IMG/VR virus record: IMGVR_UViG_3300044946_000086
Coordinates: 1-62,037 of that record
Source of the DNA: a virus
Taxonomy: Duplodnaviria > Caudoviricetes
Reading direction: 5' to 3' (one strand)
Length of the DNA stretch: 62,037 nucleotides
The notes below the pieces were generated by a model. It saw only the letters and a program-made list of their open reading frames with translations. It ran no database searches and was not told the origin of the DNA. The position numbers and the translations under genes are program-made. Of the stretch, positions 127 to 61,909 are shown piece after piece. Within the stretch, counting starts at the first letter, position 1. Each line of letters begins with the position of its first letter.

Positions 127-3123
127 AGTTTCTGGCTGTGATTTGTCACCCAGCGAAGCTGGCGGCGAAGAAGTGGTTTCAGTGGGCTTTTCGGGAACTT
201 GGTATCCGGCCTTTTCCAAAGTGTCACGGCTGACCGTGCTCCCTTTTGGATGGTCAGGAATATCTTCATTCAGATGATAAAATTCTACGCTGGCCTTACC
301 AGCTTTTGCCTCATCCATGTTCGCTGAACCCATGTGAGCGAATGTCGCAGGAGCGGGCTTGGCTGCTGGTGCAGGGGCAACTTGAGTCGTCGGCGCAGCG
401 GGCTTTTCACCCGATTGTTTGAGCAGCGATTCCCTGAGTCCGGCTTCGGCAGATGGGGGTGTAGGCGCAGGCTCAATAGGGGGTTCGCCCTTGGGTTCAC
501 CAGATGGAGCAGCCGGAGGGTTCTCTGGCGTTGTTGGTGTGCCTTCAGCACCTTTCTCTGGCATGGCATGTGGCACGACATGGGAAAGAGCTGACATGAA
601 AACTCCAACGAAGCCCATGTTGTCTGCTCCTTCCAAGGCCTTTGTCGCTGACACCTTGCGGGTAGGATCATAAATGTTTTTCGCCGCCACGTCTGTCGCA
701 AGTGTTTGGACAAATCCAACGCCAGAAGTCTGAATGCCCTCGCGCACAACGTCGGCCAATGCCTTTTTACCTCCATCCCCAGCCAACCATTTCAAAGCCG
801 AAGAATTTCCTCCTTTTGCTGCGTAATTTAAGAACTGAGATAAAAATGTTTTTCCTGCTACCGTTCCGCTGATGCGTTGCGATACCCGAGCAAACGGAAT
901 GAATGCTGCCATGCCTAGTGTTGTCCCGGCAATTTCAGCCAGACCAACCGCCTTGCTATAATCTTCTTTGGATATTTTACCTGCGTCGAGTTGGGGTTTC
1001 AGTGTGTTGATCGCCTCGCGCCGCATTTGATTTCCTTGCTGCGCTCCACTAGTCATTGCCGCCGCTGATTTACCAAGAAGTCCTACGGTCTTTTCACTGA
1101 GGCCAGCAGCACGGCCAGCGACACTAGCGACACCATCACTCAGAAACATCGGCACCAGTTGTCCGACAAGCTGCGGCGCTGTTCCAGTTACGAATGATTT
1201 GTCTAGTTTTTCCTGAACTTCTGGAGATACTGTTGGGTCTCCAGGGGCATTCTGCTGACTACGTTCATAGGTCTGTATCGCATCCTTGGTCTTCTGAAAC
1301 GTCTCTTGAATCCCCGGATCGTCGTTTTGTATTGGCGAATGCCTAGTAGCGAACTCCGCTGCGTCCAGCACGCCCTCTCCAACGGTTCCAACAGCACTAC
1401 GAGCGAACCGAGTCAGTTTTTCCTTCAGCGTCGGATCACGAGTCGCGTTTATGACAGCCTTCTTTTTGTCTGCATCCAGATTATTGAATCGCTGGAGATA
1501 GAGGCTATTGAGATAATCATTTTCCTTTTGCAGACTCGGCTTCATTACGTCACTCGTCTGCTTGTCGGCCAGCATTTCTTTGATGTCGGACAGGCGATTG
1601 CTCATCTTGACCAAAGATGCAGGCGTAACATCACCATTCCCGCTGCCATAGTTTCGGGCCAATGCCTGAACAGAAACGCCGCCAACGCCTTTGATGCCAC
1701 TCGCCGCAAGCTGGTAGGGTTCTTGTGCAACGCCGACAGCGGGCGGTTGAGACTGATCAGGAGACACAGCCGCAGGGTTATTGTTTTTTATCCCCTGATA
1801 AAGAGCACCGCCAAACTTATCAATCGCCCGGCCATAGGTATCTATGGCTTGCGCGTTTGCCGCCAATGTGGGATTTTGGTCATCAGGAATACCATTCTGT
1901 TTTCCCGCCATCTTGATCTCATCGGTCTGACCTACATGCGCGTGATATGTCGCCGCAGCCTTATGTAGCGCAAGGTTAAGCTGCGCCTCTTGTTTCTTTT
2001 GCCATAGCGGGCCGGGAGCATGATCTTTGTCTGGCTCCTGAATCTGGGTGCCTAAATCGGCCTGCGCCTTTGTCGTTTGGTCGAGTTGGTTTTGAAGCAT
2101 CGCCCGCTGCGATTGAAGCTTGGTCGCTGCATCAGTCGGACTTCCGCCGAACCCCATGACACCTCCAGCCGTTTCGTTAAACTTAGGGTCTTTGTCGATG
2201 GCATCGATCTGTTGTTGAAGCGCGTATGCCGTCTGCCCAAGCTGGCCGTGCTGCATCTTCGCCGCATCATACGCCTCATTGGTCGCTGAAAGCACATCCT
2301 GCATTGGCTGGATGGCCTGCTTCCATACCGCAGATTGTTGCTCATTTCGCGCCTTTAATGCCGCCCTTGCCACCTTGAAATTCGGACTCTTAATCAGGTC
2401 ATCGATATTGCCGTATGGCACCTGCTTTTCGTTCCCGAAATCGGCATAAAGTTGTTTATCGTTAGGGTCAGTCGGGTTCGCCATCAGTTCCGGCGAATCG
2501 TACTGCTTCTGACCAAACTTGTCTCGGCTCACCCATGCCGGTTGTTTTGTGTCAGGATCAATGCCCTGTTCCCGCTTGCCTTCCTCGTACAGAAGTTTGC
2601 CTGTTTCTTGGTCGATCATCGGCTGAACAAGGCCGTTTGCGTCCCGATAATACTTCTGGCCAGAACCTCGCATCTGCTGCTCAATCTGAGCATTCTTGCC
2701 ACGCAGCGAATCACGAGCATCGAGATCAGATTGCCTCAAAGCCCGCTGGTACTCTTCTGGCGGCGTCTGAGGCTGCCAGCCGGACGGAGCAAAAGGGTGC
2801 TCTTGATTCCACTGATCGCCCATCTGCTTGTCGACCGTCTTGTAAACGTCGGCATGGCGGGCATCGGCATCATCTGCCTGCCACGGCATGACTGGCGGGG
2901 CTCCCGGCGCACGCTGCGCGGGCTGTGGCGGCGGCGCAGCCTCGTGGACGACGCTCAGGTTGCTATCCTCGTCTTCGAGCGGTTGTGGGGACGCAGACGG
3001 GTTATAGGCTGGTGCCTGCTGCTTTGCCGGAGCAGTCTTTTGGGCAGGCTGGGCGTCCGCAGCATCGGTTTGATTCTGCGTGGCGACAGTAGGTTCCTCC
3101 GGGTCGGCGACTGCGGGTGGCAC
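1..3123 (-). CDS. N-terminal 1041 codons of a giant internal virion (ejected/polyvalent) protein, continuing at 61909..57635
   Basis: GTG at 3123 (MPPAVADPEEPTVATQNQ...) reads open to position 1 (...HGAEVDQW), then joins in frame to Q-V-KMPGEQ at 61909. It is absent from the ORF track because it has no stop within the linear window. Confidence 0.85.
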   Translation of the reverse strand, partial: MPPAVADPEEPTVATQNQTDAADAQPAQKTAPAKQQAPAYNPSASPQPLEDEDSNLSVVHEAAPPPQPAQRAPGAPPVMPWQADDADARHADVYKTVDKQMGDQWNQEHPFAPSGWQPQTPPEEYQRALRQSDLDARDSLRGKNAQIEQQMRGSGQKYYRDANGLVQPMIDQETGKLLYEEGKREQGIDPDTKQPAWVSRDKFGQKQYDSPELMANPTDPNDKQLYADFGNEKQVPYGNIDDLIKSPNFKVARAALKARNEQQSAVWKQAIQPMQDVLSATNEAYDAAKMQHGQLGQTAYALQQQIDAIDKDPKFNETAGGVMGFGGSPTDAATKLQSQRAMLQNQLDQTTKAQADLGTQIQEPDKDHAPGPLWQKKQEAQLNLALHKAAATYHAHVGQTDEIKMAGKQNGIPDDQNPTLAANAQAIDTYGRAIDKFGGALYQGIKNNNPAAVSPDQSQPPAVGVAQEPYQLAASGIKGVGGVSVQALARNYGSGNGDVTPASLVKMSNRLSDIKEMLADKQTSDVMKPSLQKENDYLNSLYLQRFNNLDADKKKAVINATRDPTLKEKLTRFARSAVGTVGEGVLDAAEFATRHSPIQNDDPGIQETFQKTKDAIQTYERSQQNAPGDPTVSPEVQEKLDKSFVTGTAPQLVGQLVPMFLSDGVASVAGRAAGLSEKTVGLLGKSAAAMTSGAQQGNQMRREAINTLKPQLDAGKISKEDYSKAVGLAEIAGTTLGMAAFIPFARVSQRISGTVAGKTFLSQFLNYAAKGGNSSALKWLAGDGGKKALADVVREGIQTSGVGFVQTLATDVAAKNIYDPTRKVSATKALEGADNMGFVGVFMSALSHVVPHAMPEKGAEGTPTTPENPPAAPSGEPKGEPPIEPAPTPPSAEAGLRESLLKQSGEKPAAPTTQVAPAPAAKPAPATFAHMGSANMDEAKAGKASVEFYHLNEDIPDHPKGSTVSRDTLEKAGYQVPEKPTETTSSPPASLGDKSQPETSKPTDAGLAATELKPLPEGATAEHLGKQHAVVEGHGAEVDQW

Positions 3124-11758: not shown

Positions 11759-12084
11759 GGCGTTATCCCCAAACAATCTTTTAACTGCTTTAGCTCCTCG
11801 ATGACTTCTTGTTTTTCACGATACCTGCGTTGATATTCCGAATATAGCATGGCATTAGTTTTGCGGCTAGTTTCTTCATTGTCCTGCATCCTACTTACGC
11901 ACGAATTTAATATCCACTTGCGTTCCTCTTTGGCCGCACGAATCCAGTCGTGGAGATAATGGTCAGAGTTGTCCTGACAAAATTCTTGAGCGACATGCTC
12001 TAAGATTTCTTCGATTGTGCATCGCTTAATTTCCTCGCGGGTGAAATGAGCCCACGGTTTAGGCGGTGGAGTTTTGGTGCTCAT
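11755..12084 (-). CDS. Hypothetical coiled-coil protein
   Basis: MSTKTPPPKPW... ORF with overlapping start and stop codons within the operon. Confidence 0.6.
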   Translation of the reverse strand: MSTKTPPPKPWAHFTREEIKRCTIEEILEHVAQEFCQDNSDHYLHDWIRAAKEERKWILNSCVSRMQDNEETSRKTNAMLYSEYQRRYREKQEVIEELKQLKDCLGITP

Positions 12085-12305
12085 TTGATTAAAAACAACC
12101 GTGCCGCGATGGCCGGTGACCAGTCGAGGTGATGGCACAGCCGAAAATAAGCCGGTAGCTGAATCCAGTTTCTCCCGCATTCGATGTTGTAGAGCGTCTT
12201 GGCATGGACACCGATGACCTTAGCCAAATCGTCAACCGTGACCTTCAGCGACTCACGCCGGTCGCGAATCAACTGCCCTAAAAGTTTTTGTCGCGCTTTG
12301 TCCAA
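12081..12305 (-). CDS. XRE/Cro-CI family HTH regulator
   Basis: LGQLIRDRRESLKVTVDDLAKVIGVHAKTLYNIECG. Confidence 0.85.
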   Translation of the reverse strand: MDKARQKLLGQLIRDRRESLKVTVDDLAKVIGVHAKTLYNIECGRNWIQLPAYFRLCHHLDWSPAIAARLFLIK

Positions 12306-12330
12306 GATTGGTTCATATTCGCTGCTTACC

Positions 12331-12350
12331 GATTCGCGTCAAGCGCGAAA
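12331..12350. promoter_or_regulatory. Palindromic operator (TTCGCG-N5-CGCGAA) overlapping a leftward TTGACG -35
   Basis: GATTCGCGTCAAGCGCGAAA; an identical 20-mer is at 55121-55140 and a variant at 14147-14164. Confidence 0.7.
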
Positions 12351-12391
12351 AGAGTTGACCGCCAATTATCCATCTGACTGCATCAATACCG

Positions 12392-12598
12392 ATGAACGCC
12401 GACTTCCTTTTCTGCCTGCTTGTTTGGCTCATGGGCGTGCTGACAGGCGTTGGCATTGGCGCGACAGCAACCTTGCTCTACGTCAGGCGCGTGCCCCAGT
12501 TGTTCAAATTCCACCATCACCTTGCGCACCAAGTCGGCATCCAGATTGTGCCGGGTGAGCAGCCGGGCGATAGTGCCGATAAATGGAAAATGAATTGA
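12392..12598 (+). CDS. Small membrane protein
   Basis: Hydrophobic N-terminal segment; TTGACC -35-like hexamer upstream. Confidence 0.55.
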   Translation: MNADFLFCLLVWLMGVLTGVGIGATATLLYVRRVPQLFKFHHHLAHQVGIQIVPGEQPGDSADKWKMN

Positions 12599-12628
12599 CG
12601 GGGCGAGCCAACACTCAGACAGGTAGGC

Positions 12629-12865
12629 ATGGGCGTTTTGACCGCAGCTATGAGAAACAAACTTCCGGCCAGCAAATTTGCTTTGCCGGGTCGTCGCTAT
12701 CCGGTGCCGGACAAGGCTCATGCAAATAATGCCCTTGCTCGCGTCAGCCAGCATGGATCGCCAGCCGAGAAATCGGCGGTACGGGCGAAGGTCAAAAAGC
12801 TTTTCTCTACGTCCTCGCGCAAGTCCAACCCGCAGGACGATCACGACGCGGACGACGGGTATTGA
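12629..12865 (+). CDS. Small basic protein, DUF6582-like
   Basis: RNKLPASKFALPGRRYPVPDKAHANNALARVSQHG signature. Confidence 0.7.
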   Translation: MGVLTAAMRNKLPASKFALPGRRYPVPDKAHANNALARVSQHGSPAEKSAVRAKVKKLFSTSSRKSNPQDDHDADDGY

Positions 12866-12870
12866 TAGGC

Positions 12871-12907
12871 AAAAAAAGACCCGACTGCCTTTCGGCGCCG
12901 CCGGGTT
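12871..12907 (-). terminator. Rho-independent terminator
   Basis: Minus strand ACCCGGC-GGC-GCC-GAAA-GGC-A-GTCGGGT followed by CTTTTTTT, between convergent genes. Confidence 0.7.
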
Positions 12908-12938
12908 CGCCCCGTAAAGGGTTGTGTCTTTACTGCGC

Positions 12939-13178
12939 TTAGGTCTTTGGAACCGGCGTGAAGTCCACGTAAAACGTGTCTCCAGGCTGGTAGACCCCAA
13001 GCAGCTCCTTGTTTGCGATGGTTAGTTCGATACTGCCGCTGGGCGTGGTCTTCGCAAACGAGTTATCCTCGTCGTTGGTAGACCCGCCATAAACGGCAGC
13101 CATCTTGATGACCTCGCCAGACCACATCTGTTTCGCAACAGACTGAATCTGCATCTTTGCCCGCATTGGTTTAGACAT
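12939..13178 (-). CDS. Conserved phage hypothetical protein
   Basis: RAKM...EDNSFAKTTPSGSIELTI.N...YVDFTP, a pattern common in phage small proteins. Confidence 0.7.
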   Translation of the reverse strand: MSKPMRAKMQIQSVAKQMWSGEVIKMAAVYGGSTNDEDNSFAKTTPSGSIELTIANKELLGVYQPGDTFYVDFTPVPKT

Positions 13179-13222
13179 AGCGATGAAGACAAGACGATTA
13201 GACTGATTCCGACTCAATCTAA

Positions 13223-13453
13223 TTATTTTCCGTCTTTCCAGTAGTCAGCCGGATCGCTTTCGTCGCGAACTTTGCCGATGGTGTTTTCCGGCCCAGCCTC
13301 GTCTTCGACCTTACCTAATTTCTGAAGCCTCGAACAGAGGCAGTGAATCTTCATCTGGAGCACGCCGATCAGTTCGACGACTTCCAATTCGCCGGAGCAC
13401 TCGTTGAGTGCCTTGTTCACCATCTCCTCGAACTGAAGAAGCTTATCGTTCAT
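13223..13453 (-). CDS. Hypothetical protein
   Basis: MNDKLLQFEEMV...DPADYWK. Confidence 0.6.
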   Translation of the reverse strand: MNDKLLQFEEMVNKALNECSGELEVVELIGVLQMKIHCLCSRLQKLGKVEDEAGPENTIGKVRDESDPADYWKDGK

Positions 13454-13598
13454 CGCCGGGAAGTTTTGGGAGATGCGGCGGATCAAGTTTGTAAACGACG
13501 AAGCACAGGAAGCACGCCGCCAGCCATTGCCGAAACGTCTCGCAGTAAACCTGCCGAAACGGCACCTTCCAGTAGTTGCGAAGTGGTCGGTCTTTCAT
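13443..13598 (-). CDS. Small hypothetical protein (51 aa)
   Basis: MKDRPLRNYWKVPF..., translated by hand; overlaps the start of the next gene. Confidence 0.45.
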   Translation of the reverse strand: MKDRPLRNYWKVPFRQVYCETFRQWLAACFLCFVVYKLDPPHLPKLPGDER

Positions 13599-13788
13599 GG
13601 TGGTATATGTACGATAAAAGTTGCGCCCTGGCCAGCCGTTTGTTGCGGGCGCGGCAACTATGAACGGAGCGCAGTCAAAGTTCGTAAACCTGCCCCCTCA
13701 ACGGACGGCTCCAAGCCGGATGCAGCCATGACTTTAACGTGGTAAGCAGCCACGAGTGCGCGACGACACAAAAACACCGCGCAAATTA

Positions 13789-13952
13789 CACCAATATGCA
13801 GGCGTCTCTTGTCCTGCCGCGAGGCCCGTGTGATGGAAGATACGCAGTAGCTTGACCATCATTTGTCGATTGCGTCTCTGCATGACGGATTGCCTTAGAG
13901 TTTCAGTTGCCGTCTATGCCACGCCGCAGCGCACCTGCGGAGATATTGGGTG
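13789..13952 (-). ncRNA. Putative multibranch structured RNA (unit 2)
   Basis: Closing stem CCAATAT/ATATTGG encloses hairpins CCGCAG/CTGCGG, GCAT-A-GACGG/CCGTC-ATGC, ACGCA/TGCGT and GCAGG/CCTGC; no convincing ORF. Confidence 0.45.
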
Positions 13953-13954
13953 AG

Positions 13955-14112
13955 TGGTAGTGAAGGCACAGGAATTTCTACCGGAGTTTCACCGATGTTG
14001 GGTGCTTATCAGGCTCCCGATTTGTTAATGAGCCGTAACCCTTGGTGCGCCGCGTTGCAACTTGGCATACCCGATTCGTGCTTCCAATCCAAGAAACTCC
14101 TTCGCCTTCACT
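13955..14112 (-). ncRNA. tRNA-like cloverleaf RNA with extended acceptor stem and 3' ACCA
   Basis: 21-bp 5'/3' stem, UG linker, 4-bp D-like arm, anticodon-like arm, long variable arm, T-arm ATCGG-TGAAACT-CCGGT, then ACCA. Confidence 0.65.
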
Positions 14113-14127
14113 TCAAAGAACAGCCGC

Positions 14128-14164
14128 ACGAAAAAACATTTTACCGTTCTCGTCAAACGCGAAA
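14128..14164 (-). promoter_or_regulatory. Leftward promoter/operator variant upstream of the RNA array
   Basis: TTGACG-N17-TTTCGT; the -35 lies within TTCTCGTCAAACGCGAAA, similar to the 12331 and 55121 element. Confidence 0.5.
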
Positions 14165-14224
14165 TTTTTTATTTCACGTAATTTTTTCTTGCGCACAAGT
14201 GGGGGTGTGCCCCATCTGTTACCT

Positions 14225-14387
14225 GCCAGCGTTCCATCTGAGGCTCCACTGGCGATTCCAACCCAACTGACCGCGATGACATCGCTACCACTTTTTCAAT
14301 TTGCCTGCCTTGGCGGGAGACAGCCGATTGCGTTATGCGCTTTCAGGCAAAGCCTCAGAAACTCGCGCTCGCTGCTGGGGCAGGCAA
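14225..14387 (+). promoter_or_regulatory. Structured 5' leader of the replication operon
   Basis: The GCCAG/CTGGC hairpin loop TCTGAGGCT (14237-14245) is complementary to AGCCTCAGA (14351-14359), which lies inside a long stem TTGCCTGCC/GGCAGGCAA. Confidence 0.45.
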
Positions 14388-14489
14388 TATTTTTACCGGG
14401 CGTCGGCACGACCATGCGGGCGTCACTTCAAACAGGGTTGAGATACCCGCGAGAGAATCGTTCTGTGCGCCCGGTTTAATTTTTACCCC

Positions 14490-14897
14490 ATGAGCTTCGC
14501 CATCTCCCCAGCCGAACTCGCGGTCGTCGCCAAAAACGGGCTGCTGCATATCGACCGGCGCACGGCATTAGGTAAGAAAATCCCGGTCATCACGCCGGCA
14601 CCAAAGTTCAATGCGGACGTTGCCAAGGCCACGATTCACATGCTCGAAGGAAAGCTGGCTGCGATTGAATCGCACTGCAAAAAACAGGAGCGCATCGCCT
14701 ATATAAACCTGACAGGAATCACGACGATCCAAACTGAAATCGGGGCCAAGGTCGCTGAACTCGAGGAGATAATAATTCTGATCGAAGACGGAAAAGGCGA
14801 AGTCACTCGCATGGTTTGCCAGGCTGCCGTCGAGGCTTTCAAGGAAACATTGGAGTTGTTAGCTCAACACCAAACTAGGATGGAGGGGATGGCGTGA
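14490..14897 (+). CDS. Hypothetical coiled-coil protein
   Basis: 135-aa ORF coupled to the next gene by overlap. Confidence 0.6.
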   Translation: MSFAISPAELAVVAKNGLLHIDRRTALGKKIPVITPAPKFNADVAKATIHMLEGKLAAIESHCKKQERIAYINLTGITTIQTEIGAKVAELEEIIILIEDGKGEVTRMVCQAAVEAFKETLELLAQHQTRMEGMA

Positions 14898-15319
14898 AGA
14901 CCCGCCACAAATGCAGAACGAAATTCTGTCGAGGTCGGTCGGCTGACGAGCATCATCATTTTTGCCAAAAGTGTCGGCACCGGAAATGGAAAAAACGAAA
15001 TCCGATGCGTGCGATTTTTATAAGCCATGTTCGCCACGCAAAAGATCGCGGTATCACCGTAACATGGACGTTCAATGAATTTAAGGTCTGGTGTGTCAAA
15101 TGGAATTACGTTCACGAGCACACGGTTAACGAGATGACTATTCACCGCAAAAATTGTCTGCTCGGATATTGCTACGATAACTGTGTCCCGATGTCGCACG
15201 CGGAAAATTCCAAGCTCGGCTGGAGCGTCGAGCGTTGGATGAAGGCGAAGATCGATAAGTGGGAACAAAAAAAGGAGGCGCGGCGCCGGGCGACAATGCT
15301 GGCCGTGAGATCAGTATGA
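14894..15319 (+). CDS. Zn-finger plus HNH-like endonuclease
   Basis: N-terminal Cys/His cluster; AKDRGI...TIHRKN..GY..DN....HAEN is a degenerate HNH. Confidence 0.65.
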   Translation: MKTRHKCRTKFCRGRSADEHHHFCQKCRHRKWKKRNPMRAIFISHVRHAKDRGITVTWTFNEFKVWCVKWNYVHEHTVNEMTIHRKNCLLGYCYDNCVPMSHAENSKLGWSVERWMKAKIDKWEQKKEARRRATMLAVRSV

Positions 15320-26130: not shown

Positions 26131-26508
26131 ATGATTACAAACAAAACCGACAGAGTAATTTATAAGCTGGCCGAGGCGTTTATCGCGTGGCCTTTGCCAG
26201 AGAGTGTTAACGCTGATCTATGCACCACAGAACAAATTAAAGGTCGGGTAGGAACAAATCTACTAACGTTCGCAGAGGCTCAACAGATGTTCAGTGAGAT
26301 TGCAGGCCCACAAATCAAAGAGCTGATCGAGCAGCGGGAAAATATGTGCGGGCTTATCTCTCGACTCTGCCGTCAGAGCTATAAACTAGGCGTGAAAAAC
26401 AAGCTCACTGATTCAGCAATGGACTACATCAACACGACCGACGCGGATAACACGCCAGCTTCAAGGCTTCTTCGTAAACTCGTGTCAGCACCCGCGCAAA
26501 AGCCATGA
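26131..26508 (+). CDS. Hypothetical phage protein
   Basis: FIAWPLPESV..D...GTNLLT..EA motif. Confidence 0.65.
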   Translation: MITNKTDRVIYKLAEAFIAWPLPESVNADLCTTEQIKGRVGTNLLTFAEAQQMFSEIAGPQIKELIEQRENMCGLISRLCRQSYKLGVKNKLTDSAMDYINTTDADNTPASRLLRKLVSAPAQKP

Positions 26509-26644
26509 GCCGCCTTTACCTATACGCTGAACCAGCGAATCCACCCATCAAGATGGATAGCCTTAACGTCACGGCTCGACCTTCCAAACCGCCGATCAAA
26601 CCCATGCCGATGACCAAGCTGAAACGCCGCACCAAGCAAAAGCC

Positions 26645-26842
26645 ATGAGCCGCACCCATAGAAACTGGCCGGGCGGAATACTCTACTGCTCAAAGTGCAA
26701 AAAAGCCTTTAAGCAGGCATCGAGCATTGCCTCACATTCCCGCGTTTGCACCGGCCCCACAAAGTCAAAGCGACCACGTTACCCAAAAGCGTTCCAAAAA
26801 CTTTTGGACGCGATACCCCGCCAGCCCGCACCAAATTTATGA
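26645..26842 (+). CDS. Small C2HC zinc-finger protein
   Basis: YCSKCKKAFKQASSIASHSRVC. Confidence 0.6.
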   Translation: MSRTHRNWPGGILYCSKCKKAFKQASSIASHSRVCTGPTKSKRPRYPKAFQKLLDAIPRQPAPNL

Positions 26843-57634: not shown

Positions 57635-60600
57635 TTATTTGATTTTTGGCATTATGCCACGAACCTTTTGTCGTTCATCTCGTTCGATTTCCTTTATCTG
57701 CTTGTCAGCTTCTTCGGAGGTCATTGAACGCAATTCAGGTAGCATTTCCTCAAGCCTAGACTTAATTCGCTGCCCGCTAAGTTTTTGGTAAAAATCATAC
57801 TCATGCTCGGTCATCACCCGGTTGCCTATCTTTGTATCACGACTCGGTGTGCTAACGAACACATTTTTTTCGTTTAGCGTGTCTCTCAACGCATCTGGCT
57901 TAACCCCGGACGAGAACCGTTGAGTCGGACTATAGGTCATGGGTGAGCCAAGCGCATCCGTCCGTTCACTGCCAAGACGACGGACAAACGGTATCTCTGA
58001 TCCCACCACTCCAAATGGGCCGTTGTCCTTATGCTGGGTAGGACTGAGGGCCATATCGATCTGCCGAACTCCATTGGGAATGACGGCGCTTGTTGCGGTG
58101 GAAGCCAAAAATTTTCCAAATCGGTTGGGCGTAACGCTTCCTTTGGCGAAATCCATTAACTGCGAAAGCCCCTGTAGCATTGACGTATCCATGACCGCAC
58201 GTCCAGCACCGCCAATGGCGTCGGCCACATGGCTACTCAGAAGCATCTCGTCTCGCTGCTTTTGGTACTTCAGTGAATCTGAAACATTTCCGACGACGGT
58301 AAGCGGAATCATTAGCGGCGAATACATGTAGTTGTACCACCGATCACCGATTTTAATAGAATGGGGTGCCCACCCTGTTTGTTGAAGTTGAACCCGCTTG
58401 TTGTAATCACGAGGCCCGGCACCGCTGATGTCGAAAGTTTTGTCTTTGGATTTATCCAAGGCCATCGCCGTCAGCGCACCCATTAGCATTGTCCCGCCTA
58501 CGCTCTTTATCAGAAGCCGCGTGCGATCATCACTGTTCATTTCCACCGGAGCCTTACCCTCCGCATCCAGCGTTCCTACCAATGCTCGCTTCGCTCCGAG
58601 CGGAGTATAATTCATCGACTCATTGAAAAGATTGGTTGGAATGCGAAGGAACGGCATGAACGGTTTTAAGACTGGAACGCCAGCAATTTTTATCTTGTTA
58701 TTCACCGCATCGTTTAGAACTCGGTAGATAGCTCCGGCCACGCCGGTTGGTTCCTGCCTATAAACCGCCTGTTCGCCAAATTTCGCCCCAAGTGATTGAG
58801 CTTGATTGCCAACATCGCTTTTATTTCGATGCTGCTCGATAAGTTGACCGACCCTTAATCCGAGATCAGTTCCTTTGAATCCTTCGACCTTTGCCTGTTT
58901 AGTGAACAACTCAAATTGCGATGGAGAGATTCCGAGCGTCGATTGAACCTTGGCATTGAGTTCTTTCCCGCTGTATTCCGATTCGAGTAACTTTGTTGCC
59001 ACCAATTTAGCGTAGGCTTCGCGTGCTGGCTGATAGAAAAATGCCTCAATAGCCTTGAAAGCACGCGGAACATACTTCAATGCGCCAGTATAAGGATTTT
59101 TGGCGTCTTCCAATGAACTGAGCTTATGCGGAGCCGTTCCAGCCTCGCCATAACCTCCGGTCAACGGATTGTATCCGATGCCGCCTTTTCCCTCTGAAAT
59201 AGTCGCCTTTGCGCGTTCCCATCCGGCACCGAGGCCATCCAGCCATCCAGAGATAAGCGTGTTTGCGTGCGCCGGATTTGCAGCAATAGCCGTCGTCATC
59301 TGCCCAAGTGAATTGAGAATATCACCACCCGTCTTCACGATTGTCGCCGTTCCAGCCAACATATTTGCATACCAGATACTTGTTCCTGTATCTATGGCCT
59401 TGGCCCACTTTCCTCCTTGCCTAGCTTTCCGCATTTCATCGGCCAAGTCCAATGTGGCTCTGGCCTTAGACGCAGGATTTTCCGCTGTCTCAACCTTGTC
59501 AGCTAGGTCAGCAATTTTCTTCAACTGCTCTGGTTTAACATTTGGCAAATGAAGTTCATTCGCCACTGCATCCTGAACATCGGCCCTAGTCAGAGCCCCG
59601 ATATTATTTAAGCTTGTGGCCTTTGAAACTGCGTCGAAAATCTTCTTCGCCTTGAGCGTATTGGCGAACCGCTTTTTCAGTGATTCTATCGCCTTGTCAC
59701 GTTCTTCCGAATAAATTGATTTTGTGCGTTCAGTTATTTCAGCAGCAAGGTTCGCGGCATCGGCACCACTGAGGCCGGCATCGCGCACAAGAGCATCGGC
59801 GAAGTCTCCAGCCTTCGCATCGCTCTTCGTGAAGTGTTCCTTGGCGATCTGCGCAACTGATGTTTGCATCAGTTTATGCGCGTCATTTATCGCATGATCC
59901 ACAAGTTTTTCGGAATACGGATGAAGCCCAAGGTTCGCCAGTTCGGTATCAATTGAATCCATTAACGGGCCGCCCTCTCCGTATTTATCTACGAATGCCT
60001 TGCGAACAGTAGTCAGAACATCGCCGTATTTGTCTTTGTTATCAATGGCCTCGCGCAGCAAATCACCTGGCGATGGAGGAGGTTTCCCTCCCGGTTTTTC
60101 AGGAAGGAGTGGCTTTATCCGGCTTTGGAGTTCGCTAACTACGCGCTGGGCGAACTCCTGAAGAGGAGCTTTTTCTTTTGGCGGCGTGACGCTGGAGTCC
60201 ACCAAGTCGATCATGCGCTGGGCGGCACTATCCCGATAACGCTGCCAGATGTCTTTCGTCACCTGCGTCTGCTGGGTCGCCTTGTTGAGCGCCTTGGTTG
60301 CCCTTTCTATCGCCTTGTTTTTGGCTCCGTCGATGGCTTTAGTTGCTTCGTCAACCGCCTTTTTACCATCACTACCCAAGCGCTTTGTCTGCTCGGTTTG
60401 AACGTCGTCAAGGTGCTGCTGGATTGATCCTGAACGCGCATTCTTATTGATCTGCGCATACATCGCAATTTGCTGGCCTTGTTCGGTTGCAGCCGGCGAT
60501 TTAGCTGTGCTGAGAGATTGTCTAGCCCGGACGGCTTTCGCTAATTCCTGCGGCGTCTTGGCCTCAACAACGCGCTTATCTGCGGCCTCACCCAGTTTAA

Positions 60601-61909
60601 CATAAATCGCGCTTTTAACTGGCAGGGGAACGCCATCGTCAGCCTTGCTCATAGAAATACTCATGGCCTTATCGGCACCGTGATGGTCTATGATGGCTTG
60701 AGCGGCCTCAAGATCAGGCTGTTGGCTTCGCCGTTGATAGGTCTGTCTCACAACCTCCGCATTTGCCTCACGCTCAGTATCAGGAAGGCTGCGGTAAAAT
60801 TTACCCGGCTGTCCTTTTACGGGTTCTGGTTTCACTGCTTTTTTCTCTTCAGGCTCTTCTTTGACGCTGGCATTTCCGTGCTCGGTTGTTTCAGCACCAG
60901 ACGACCCCGATTCGCGTAAATTCCTGAGCATAGCCCTTGCTGCCTGCTCATTCGTCAACGTGGCTAGACCTCGTTTAGCCAGCCAACCTTTGACTGCCTC
61001 TACGATCTTACCGAACACGCCGGGATTTTTCTCTGCGTTCTGTGCCACCCATTCGTTGACCAAGCGCAGCTTGTAATCTGCCGGGCTTTCACCGTCTCGC
61101 TGCGCATACTTACCTTTAAGCGCGTCCATCTGTTCCGCAGGAATTTCACGGGTGGCAAAAGCAGACAAAGCCACCTTTCCCTTTTTAGAGGCAAGCGTAT
61201 CGTGGGCGTGCTCATGGTTCAGAACTTCGTGGATGGACGCTGCATCGGTTGCGTGAGCCGCGTTTATCGTTATTTCTCCGTTGTGATGAAATCCTCTAAC
61301 ACCCTTTCCATCCTGCGTCCACTCAGGATCATTGATGACCTTGATGTTTTTCGGCGCATTAGGATTTTTCGCCTTCCAATCATCCACTGCTTTCTGAGCT
61401 TCGTCCGTTGACAGACTCCCTGTTTTTTCGCCTTTTTCAACCAATGAAGCTGAACCGATTTTGTCTGACACTTGGATGTTTCGAGAAGTATTTTGTCCTG
61501 CATCATTCGCTTTTCTGTTTTTAAACACGGCACTCATAAGCTCGGAATGATTAGCCGATTTCAATGGCTTCCCGTTGATGGTCTTAATACCTGATTTATT
61601 TAATTCGGCGCTAAGATCATCCGGCTTCATCGTGACTACGTTCGGCTTTTCTGAAACAGCTTCCGTACCGGCCTTTTCTTGACGTGCTCCGGCAGCGCCT
61701 TGATCGACGGCGTTTCCGCCGCCCACCGTTTCGCCATTGCCGGTTTGTTTGCGAACATCCACGCCTGTTGAGCCTTCGATTTTAGTGGCATTTGATTTGT
61801 CCTCCGTAGTTGGTTTTTCTGTGATTTCAGGTGCCTTGAATCCTTGCGCGGCTAGTTCCGCAGCGGTCATGGTGTGCCCGCGACCTTGCTCGCCCGGCAT
61901 CTTCACCTG
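57635..61909 (-). CDS. C-terminal part of the giant internal virion protein (total ~2,465 aa) with zincin-like metallopeptidase motif
   Basis: GVRGF..G.ITIN...EVLNHEHAH; C-terminal G.GP...GWAPHSIKIGDRWYNY motif typical of podoviral internal proteins. Confidence 0.85.
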   Translation of the reverse strand, partial: QVKMPGEQGRGHTMTAAELAAQGFKAPEITEKPTTEDKSNATKIEGSTGVDVRKQTGNGETVGGGNAVDQGAAGARQEKAGTEAVSEKPNVVTMKPDDLSAELNKSGIKTINGKPLKSANHSELMSAVFKNRKANDAGQNTSRNIQVSDKIGSASLVEKGEKTGSLSTDEAQKAVDDWKAKNPNAPKNIKVINDPEWTQDGKGVRGFHHNGEITINAAHATDAASIHEVLNHEHAHDTLASKKGKVALSAFATREIPAEQMDALKGKYAQRDGESPADYKLRLVNEWVAQNAEKNPGVFGKIVEAVKGWLAKRGLATLTNEQAARAMLRNLRESGSSGAETTEHGNASVKEEPEEKKAVKPEPVKGQPGKFYRSLPDTEREANAEVVRQTYQRRSQQPDLEAAQAIIDHHGADKAMSISMSKADDGVPLPVKSAIYVKLGEAADKRVVEAKTPQELAKAVRARQSLSTAKSPAATEQGQQIAMYAQINKNARSGSIQQHLDDVQTEQTKRLGSDGKKAVDEATKAIDGAKNKAIERATKALNKATQQTQVTKDIWQRYRDSAAQRMIDLVDSSVTPPKEKAPLQEFAQRVVSELQSRIKPLLPEKPGGKPPPSPGDLLREAIDNKDKYGDVLTTVRKAFVDKYGEGGPLMDSIDTELANLGLHPYSEKLVDHAINDAHKLMQTSVAQIAKEHFTKSDAKAGDFADALVRDAGLSGADAANLAAEITERTKSIYSEERDKAIESLKKRFANTLKAKKIFDAVSKATSLNNIGALTRADVQDAVANELHLPNVKPEQLKKIADLADKVETAENPASKARATLDLADEMRKARQGGKWAKAIDTGTSIWYANMLAGTATIVKTGGDILNSLGQMTTAIAANPAHANTLISGWLDGLGAGWERAKATISEGKGGIGYNPLTGGYGEAGTAPHKLSSLEDAKNPYTGALKYVPRAFKAIEAFFYQPAREAYAKLVATKLLESEYSGKELNAKVQSTLGISPSQFELFTKQAKVEGFKGTDLGLRVGQLIEQHRNKSDVGNQAQSLGAKFGEQAVYRQEPTGVAGAIYRVLNDAVNNKIKIAGVPVLKPFMPFLRIPTNLFNESMNYTPLGAKRALVGTLDAEGKAPVEMNSDDRTRLLIKSVGGTMLMGALTAMALDKSKDKTFDISGAGPRDYNKRVQLQQTGWAPHSIKIGDRWYNYMYSPLMIPLTVVGNVSDSLKYQKQRDEMLLSSHVADAIGGAGRAVMDTSMLQGLSQLMDFAKGSVTPNRFGKFLASTATSAVIPNGVRQIDMALSPTQHKDNGPFGVVGSEIPFVRRLGSERTDALGSPMTYSPTQRFSSGVKPDALRDTLNEKNVFVSTPSRDTKIGNRVMTEHEYDFYQKLSGQRIKSRLEEMLPELRSMTSEEADKQIKEIERDERQKVRGIMPKIK

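Follow-up and report, generated by a model that had tools for sequence, protein, structure and literature searches.

A candidate phage small RNA with a 21-position terminal helix and an encoded ACCA end, in the position of a tRNA gene of a related soil phage

What kind of element is the 158-nt sequence that ends like a tRNA, in a gap between two operons of a phage for which ARAGORN reports no tRNA genes? The window analyzed here is the whole of virus record IMGVR_UViG_3300044946_000086 (62,037 bases), which originates from soil metagenomes and is complete or nearly so (CheckV estimate of 98%). It encodes an SU10-type portal, a capsid protein, a DnaB-like helicase, a RecT-like protein, an SF2 helicase, an FkbM-family methyltransferase, a pyrophosphatase, a GNAT protein, and an HNH endonuclease. 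The element lies in an ORF-poor gap of ∼1 kb (13487 to 14489), with a minus-strand operon on one side and a plus-strand operon leading to a helicase on the other. ORFs within this gap have no Pfam or PHROG match, and one of them (14042 to 14479) is lost in metagenomic relatives. A consensus scan of the gap returned no sigma-70 promoter and no intrinsic terminator. Elsewhere in the window, a 1,423-amino-acid ORF (57635 to 61906, minus strand) adjoins the portal gene; it has no Pfam match and shares 50% identity with a homologue in a related phage.

The candidate RNA occupies 13955 to 14112 on the minus strand, is present in one copy in the phage, and consists of a terminal helix, four inner hairpins, and a single-stranded ACCA (13955 to 13958) immediately 3' of the helix. 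The 21-position helix, inner arms, and ACCA listed by the first-pass annotation are all present there, in the order it gave. The helix joins 14092 to 14112 (5' strand, pair probabilities of 0.79 to 1.0) with 13959 to 13979 (3' strand, recovered by an inverted-repeat search and by folding); as DNA, the two 21-nt arms are 86% complementary and 112 nt apart. Read as minus-strand RNA, the 21 positions contain 18 Watson-Crick pairs, two G-U pairs, and one A·G mismatch, whereas on the plus strand both G-U pairs turn into C·A mismatches, and the MFE is −50.7 kcal/mol compared to −56.9 kcal/mol for the minus strand. Because the G-U pairs exist on the minus strand only, this asymmetry favors an RNA made from the minus strand. 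The fold of the 158 nt is more stable than expected from shuffled sequences (z = −3.23), with 2 of 200 shuffles equally stable.

The interior is less sharply defined. From 5' to 3', it contains a D-like hairpin (GAUU, 9-nt loop, AAUC; RNA positions 24 to 40, window 14073 to 14089) that has a probability of ∼0.4 and does not appear in the MFE fold, an 8-position arm (GGUAUGCC, 12-nt loop, GGCGCACC; RNA positions 42 to 69, 14044 to 14071) found in both the MFE and centroid folds, a long arm with GGGU..ACCC around GGCUC..GAGCC (RNA positions 72 to 113, 14000 to 14041) found in the centroid fold at 0.45 to 0.76, and a T-like hairpin, AUCGG-UGAAACU-CCGGU (13980 to 13996, probability of ∼0.5), that abuts the 3' strand of the terminal helix. 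Only the closing stem (∼1.0) and the 8-position arm (∼0.9) are well-supported helices. A cloverleaf-like inner fold has a predicted energy of −52.8 kcal/mol versus the MFE of −56.9 kcal/mol, which makes it one of several folds and not the predicted optimum.

How often such a stem arises by chance was assessed by counting stems with at least 20 of 21 positions paired, G-U pairs allowed, and a loop of 40 to 200 nt. Two places in the window qualified, whereas 40 dinucleotide shuffles averaged 0.5; at least one such stem was present in 15 of them and at least two in 3. Because similar stems occur 0.5 times per shuffled window, the stem by itself is weakly above chance. This background is one argument for the view that the locus has no function of its own and is a chance or relic inverted repeat in a recently exchanged spacer module, which is taken up again below. 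The second stem in the window (26397 to 26546, minus strand, loop of 106 to 108 nt) overlaps ORFs of the plus strand, and a direct repeat of 16 nt (GGCTCATGGCTTTTGC on the minus strand) at ∼26635 to 26650 and ∼26496 to 26511 resembles repeated gene starts.

The 158-nt RNA is not a decoding tRNA. ARAGORN in tRNA mode at default settings finds nothing in the element, and Rfam gives no tRNA match, which bears out the first-pass opinion that it is unlikely to decode. Canonical tRNAs have a 7-bp acceptor stem and a 5-bp anticodon stem with a 7-nt loop, and their T loops follow the consensus UUCRANY. The element has an acceptor helix of 21 positions, not 7, a central arm of 8 positions with a 12-nt loop, an extra arm of 42 nt, and the loop UGAAACU, which has U at position 1 and A at position 5 and departs from UUCRANY. 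It resembles a canonical tRNA in the single-stranded NCCA after the helix, the 2-nt UG linker after the 5' strand, and the 5-bp, 7-nt-loop hairpin that abuts the 3' strand. With a threshold of 80% and introns allowed, ARAGORN calls a tRNA-Ile(GAU) with a 54-nt intron; the same settings produce 175 calls in the window, so this call is noise.

Searches for other known classes gave similar results. Rfam at gathering scores has no match in the whole window; with E values up to 10, there are two weak matches in a 901-nt query and four in a 178-nt query, all far below gathering scores. The hallmarks of tmRNA are a tRNA-Ala-like acceptor with G3:U70 and a tag reading frame. ARAGORN in tmRNA mode was empty even at the 80% threshold, pair 3 of the helix is U-A, and Rfam gives no tmRNA match. 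A retron msr-msd was rejected on the basis of zero reverse transcriptase (PF00078) matches in the phage record, and an attP site at a tRNA 3' end on the basis of zero tyrosine integrase (PF00589) matches in the same record. A MITE was rejected as well: no target-site duplication was seen by eye at the helix ends, and the element is single copy in the genome. A single-sequence covariance model of the element (R1) found no sequence or structure similar to rnaC or rnaD in the tRNA region of phage T4; the element's own copy in the window scored 203.5 bits as a positive control. The ARAGORN and Rfam scans that the first-pass annotation had called for thus found no tRNA, tmRNA, YrlA, or Y RNA, and its view that the element is not a known family is upheld.

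The first-pass annotation had also pointed to Y RNAs. Under that reading, the element would be a Y-RNA-like ligand of a host Ro60 (Rsr), and GGCGAAG in the 5' strand of the terminal helix (14100 to 14106, RNA positions 7 to 13), beside the G·U and A·G irregularity, would be a putative Ro60 site. The string fits GNCGAAN0-1G, which in YrlA and YrlB lies near the 5' end and is presented by Chen et al. (2014; PMC4201824) as the proposed Rsr site. The terminal stem is built from the 5' and 3' ends, as it is in Y RNAs, and the same paper describes YrlA with such a motif-bearing stem, a multi-arm interior likened to tRNA, and related sequences in 22 bacteriophages. However, GNCGAAG occurs 84 times in the window, so a chance match is expected in ∼1 to 2% of cases for a 21-nt strand and ∼10 to 20% for 158 nt. 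The arm order of YrlA (V, T, AS, D) is unlike that of the element, its terminal stem replaces the anticodon stem, which is not so here, and its nearly invariant tRNA-like T and D stem-loops are absent from the 158 nt. None of the four weak Rfam matches in the 178-nt query belongs to a Y-RNA-type family. YrlA is encoded within 4 kb of Ro60 on the same strand (PMC4201824), whereas the TROVE domain (PF05731) has zero matches in the whole phage record, with control matches in 2 of 14 genomes; the absence of a Ro60 gene noted at first pass is therefore correct. The motif is real, but the T and D loops of YrlA and the linkage to Ro60 are missing, and we regard a Ro60 ligand as very improbable.

Is the locus conserved? 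Six public sequencing runs share words with 13500 to 14500, and four of them, X2, X3, X4, and X6, were compared to the window over 13200 to 14800 at 80% likeness. These runs were found through the compared stretch itself, and the small word shares of X2 to X6 are uninformative on habitat. All four are soil runs with near-identical contigs over the 158-nt element. In X2, two contigs covering the core differ from the window at 6 of 298 positions (13783 to 14080) and 3 of 136 positions (14058 to 14193), while contigs covering the neighboring genes differ at 27 of 288 (13200 to 13487) and 19 of 313 (14488 to 14800). The difference between core (9/411) and genes (46/601) is significant (Fisher P = 1e−4). 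In X4, a contig across the RNA (13945 to 14095) has 0 differences in 151 positions versus 23 in 167 for a flank contig (13466 to 13632; P = 2e−7). X3 contributes a single 246-nt contig (13915 to 14160) with eight differences and two indels, both indels upstream of the 158-nt RNA. In metagenomic relatives, 13783 to 14193 is thus ∼98% identical versus ∼91 to 94% for the flanking genes. None of the four differences listed for 13783 to 14193 (13851, 13883, 13940, and 14143) lies inside the 158 nt, a statement that covers these four and not the 29 others.

The spacer adjoining this block is replaced. X2 has no cover at 13686 to 13782 and next to none at 14194 to 14487, and its contigs continue into these flanks with dissimilar sequence (unaligned ends of 16, 245, and 255 nt). 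Two variants occur in X2 at 13610 to 13667, and X2 and X4 may each contain more than one strain. The conserved unit is therefore a block of ∼410 nt, from 14193 to 13783, and is bigger than the 158 nt. The first-pass annotation was right that a noncoding, conserved element lies on the minus strand, but it missed the larger extent of that element and the second RNA-like element within it.

High identity in the core could be explained by recent exchange of a module rather than by selection. Whole segments are replaced around it, as recombination predicts, and no homologues were found beyond the near-identical relatives; both observations fit a chance or relic repeat. Against this, the RNA is the part that varies least in three runs, and the stem, the ACCA, G-U pairs specific to one strand, and the tRNA-slot position described below come together at one place. 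We consider it improbable that the element lacks a function of its own.

The search for more distant homologues of the 158 nt was negative at every level tried. There was none by BLASTN against 50,697 phage records or by nhmmer against 17 loci, R1 found none in 16 related records, and with filters off its hits in four loci were plain hairpins (best E = 0.21). Neither an exact 21-mer nor a loop-anchored pattern had a match in IMG/VR. Among 400 genomes of the class of record G016, nine had matches, all of at most 35 nt. The two best of these were inspected; by our reading of the DNA, one lies in an AT-rich ORF-like stretch and one in an aminoacyl-tRNA-synthetase-like frame, and because both are in apparent coding frames they were treated as chance. 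A scan of related loci for a 14-bp stem followed by NCCA returned five matches, none near the cassettes, that were judged to be chance. Four of the five are one site, a 14-pair stem followed by GCCA (L043 404 to 563, plus strand, and also L044, L046, and L049); it was placed in a glycosyltransferase-gene-like region, its C/U changes keep pairing with G, and it probably reflects coding-sequence conservation. Because no homologue was found, the tRNA-shaped inner fold has no covariation support. The literature covered describes no long-acceptor, CCA-ended phage RNA, although the candidate viral RNAs tabulated for PMC10690425 could include the cassette.

The rest of the conserved block gave a different result. 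A second conserved structured element occupies 13783 to 13951 on the minus strand, and homologous stretches were found in six other phage records: G012 (loci L042/L053), the record of L054, G008, G009, G017 (L043/L049, L044/L048, and L046), and the record of L094. These copies were identified from matches to the 411-nt query and three pattern scans. When 16 related phage records were searched with the 411-nt query, 4 had matches, 3 of them with the downstream element, and the only match inside the 158 nt was 14 nt long (E = 0.17). Copies are located at L042 1497 to 1700 (plus strand), L054 ∼1090 to 1280 (minus strand), L043 ∼1480 to 1625 (minus strand), and L094 ∼1900 to 2100 (minus strand).

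In the window, all on the minus strand, the downstream element contains a hairpin, H1, with loop GUGCG (13924 to 13940); a helix, P1, pairing 13910 to 13920 with 13880 to 13888, that encloses CUGAA..UCUAAGGCA (13891 to 13906); the stretch CACACGGGCCUCGCGG (13817 to 13832); and a terminal hairpin (13798 to 13817). H1 has 4 to 6 bp, and one five-base loop is found in five of five distinct sequences (GUGCG, or AUGCG in the L043 type) on three different stems. The halves of P1 differ between the window and the other records with pairing retained, and H1 plus P1 appear in four of five independent MFE folds. The interior CUGAA ... UCUAAGGCA is conserved, as is a CACNCGGGCCUC stretch (CAGGCGGCCUC in L094), whereas a further hairpin is variable. 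In G012, the final hairpin takes the form of a same-strand terminator with a stem and a U-run. These helices were taken from single-sequence folds and direct reading, because MAFFT/RNAalifold alignments were misaligned around the variable hairpins. Rfam detected only tRNA in L042 to L045 and no family for the downstream element, which is common to seven soil phage records and may itself be a new RNA motif.

What precedes the downstream element varies among phages. In G008, G009, and G017, the portal gene is upstream, and in L094 another gene is, so that the element sits between two genes. In L054, it is preceded by ∼230 nt of other structured sequence (z = −3.67), and in G012 by a genuine tRNA-Thr(UGU) with an encoded CCA (ARAGORN; Rfam tRNA, 59 bits). 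The structured stretch in L054 (1283 to 1520, minus strand) runs between the end of an SSB-like gene and the downstream element and includes a 19-pair hairpin. It also has a ∼73-nt part with a closing helix, the 3' strand of which leads into a CCA located 7 nt ahead of the element; ARAGORN finds no tRNA in this stretch.

The G012 arrangement provides the closest connection between the 158-nt element and a tRNA. The downstream element starts with ACCCAA; the tRNA-Thr of G012 (L042) ends in UCCA 4 nt before it, and the ACCA of the window lies 3 nt before it. Alignable sequence among the window, L042, and L054 begins just past the CCA, which favors a junction of two distinct modules at a 3' end of tRNA type. 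The tRNA-Thr and the 158-nt element share an encoded NCCA after a terminal helix and the same position relative to the downstream element, but sequence similarity between them is undetectable. By this comparison, the helix-plus-ACCA end is positionally equivalent to the 3' end of tRNA-Thr. The correspondence is drawn from one relative, G012, since five of the six other records have no tRNA upstream of the downstream element. The first-pass description of the RNA as tRNA-shaped is supported for its end, which matches the 3' end of a real tRNA in position; it is not supported for the interior, where the cloverleaf is not the MFE fold and the T-loop consensus is missing.

The same block could be read as a structured phage RNA that is not tRNA-like, in which the 158 nt belong to a longer transcript (a leader for the minus-strand operon, or a single sRNA of ∼330 nt that also takes in the downstream element) and the ACCA and T-like hairpin are coincidental. 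The conserved block is unbroken from 14193 to 13783, the inner fold is ambiguous, and neither ARAGORN nor Rfam assigns a tRNA-type score; by simple arithmetic, NCCA follows a helix by chance 1 time in 64. Furthermore, a 202-nt contig from the RNA-library run X6 covers 13830 to 14031 and crosses the proposed 3' end. This contig is evidence of presence in an RNA library and not proof of transcription. Coincidence does not readily account for a CCA in register with that of tRNA-Thr in G012 or for window/L042/L054 similarity that begins just past the CCA, and we judge a longer, non-tRNA-like transcript to be rather unlikely.

Upstream of the 158 nt, 14113 to 14193 (minus strand) is kept along with the RNA in run X2 (∼98% identity), and sequence beyond 14193 is replaced. 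We infer that this stretch is likely a promoter and short leader. It includes an AT-rich tract with two 13-nt direct repeats (14160 to 14172 and 14177 to 14189) spaced 17 nt apart, and the GC fraction at 14100 to 14199 is 0.39. TAAAAT is found at 14138 to 14143, and the X2 relative alters its first T (position 14143), which makes the promoter call weak.

An AT-rich dip with two direct repeats (14160 to 14189) beside the large inverted repeat, in a divergent intergenic region 1.2 kb upstream of the DnaB-like helicase operon, would also suit an element that acts as DNA, such as a replication origin or a protein-binding or cruciform site, with any transcript being incidental or a primer. By our own reading, the related cassette in G012 and L054 follows a gene that ends in what we take to be an SSB-like acidic tail, which points in the same direction. 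The repeat pair is statistically unremarkable, however, with at least two matches in 13 of 100 shuffles, and none of the 71 loose DnaA-box matches in the window falls within 11821 to 15091. The G-U asymmetry favors an RNA strand, and the occurrence of the downstream element after the portal gene in three relatives and with an intrinsic terminator in G012 fits an RNA gene. A purely DNA-level role is quite unlikely on this evidence.

The explanation that we tentatively prefer, while holding it to be somewhat short of probable, is a new phage small RNA that occupies the tRNA slot in a cassette of two RNAs and probably matures through the action of tRNA end-processing enzymes. The 158-nt element would be the first gene of a self-contained noncoding RNA cassette on the minus strand, from ∼14193 to 13783. 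Transcription would begin in the AT-rich conserved stretch at 14113 to 14193. The helix and the 3' ACCA could then direct cleavage by host RNase P to the helix 5' end, in the way that hairpin-type substrates do. Cleavage of the A/U-rich spacer by an endonuclease and subsequent trimming by an exonuclease as far as the ACCA would release a nuclease-resistant 158-nt RNA with a tRNA-acceptor-like end and would also free the downstream structured RNA of ∼170 nt. That the RNA is transcribed, where exactly it ends, that tRNA enzymes process it, and what it may bind are all inferences. The T-like loop would lie 26 stacked pairs from the cleavage site, compared to 12 in tRNA, so the RNase P specificity domain is not expected to recognize it as it would a tRNA. 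Hairpin RNase P substrates and tRNA-like handles include the 4.5S RNA precursor, MALAT1 mascRNA, and the gammaherpesvirus tRNA-miRNA units. By analogy, the shared concept would be a module cut by tRNA-end enzymes to set the ends of a neighboring RNA.

After release, the likeliest candidate role of the small RNA is to bind or divert a factor that recognizes tRNA acceptor ends. A more specific version of this idea, which we think unlikely, is a new class of tRNA-acceptor mimic, produced by RNase P and 3' trimming, with a triple-length acceptor helix and no anticodon, that titrates or misdirects a host 3'-end reader. Candidate targets are an anti-phage acceptor-end nuclease or nucleotidyltransferase, an aminoacyl-tRNA synthetase, or a Ro60-type protein, and the same processing would release a second, regulatory RNA. 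The phage record has zero matches to a phage CCA-adding enzyme, and the 50 ORFs scanned with Pfam include no aminoacyl-tRNA-dependent transferase, RNA ligase, or other tRNA enzyme. No link was found from the 158-nt element, as an aminoacyl donor, to the methyltransferase, pyrophosphatase, and GNAT genes on the same strand. The decoy and aminoacyl-donor roles suggested at first pass are conjectural, with evidence neither for nor against them.

The closest known RNAs in kind are rnaC (species 1) and rnaD (species 2) of phage T4, which are ∼120 to 140 nt long, nondecoding, and located in a tRNA gene slot (AF158101, 70908 to 71171). Like the window RNA, rnaC has a multi-arm fold with a hairpin adjoining the 3' end. 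However, the T arm of rnaC is canonical (CCGGG-UUCGAAU-CCCGG) and its terminal stem is short, whereas the window RNA has a 21-position terminal helix, a nonconsensus loop, and an encoded ACCA. We know of no function for rnaC or rnaD.

Nondecoding tRNA-like RNAs of phages, such as T4 species 1 and 2 and phage YrlA, are a long-standing puzzle, and tRNA ends are known targets in phage-host conflict. Should the 158-nt element prove to be just a leader or a relic, the finding would be unremarkable. If the preferred explanation is true, a long-helix, CCA-ended RNA in place of a real tRNA would be a clean and testable case of tRNA-end mimicry. The analysis also brings to light a second conserved RNA motif that is common to several soil phages.
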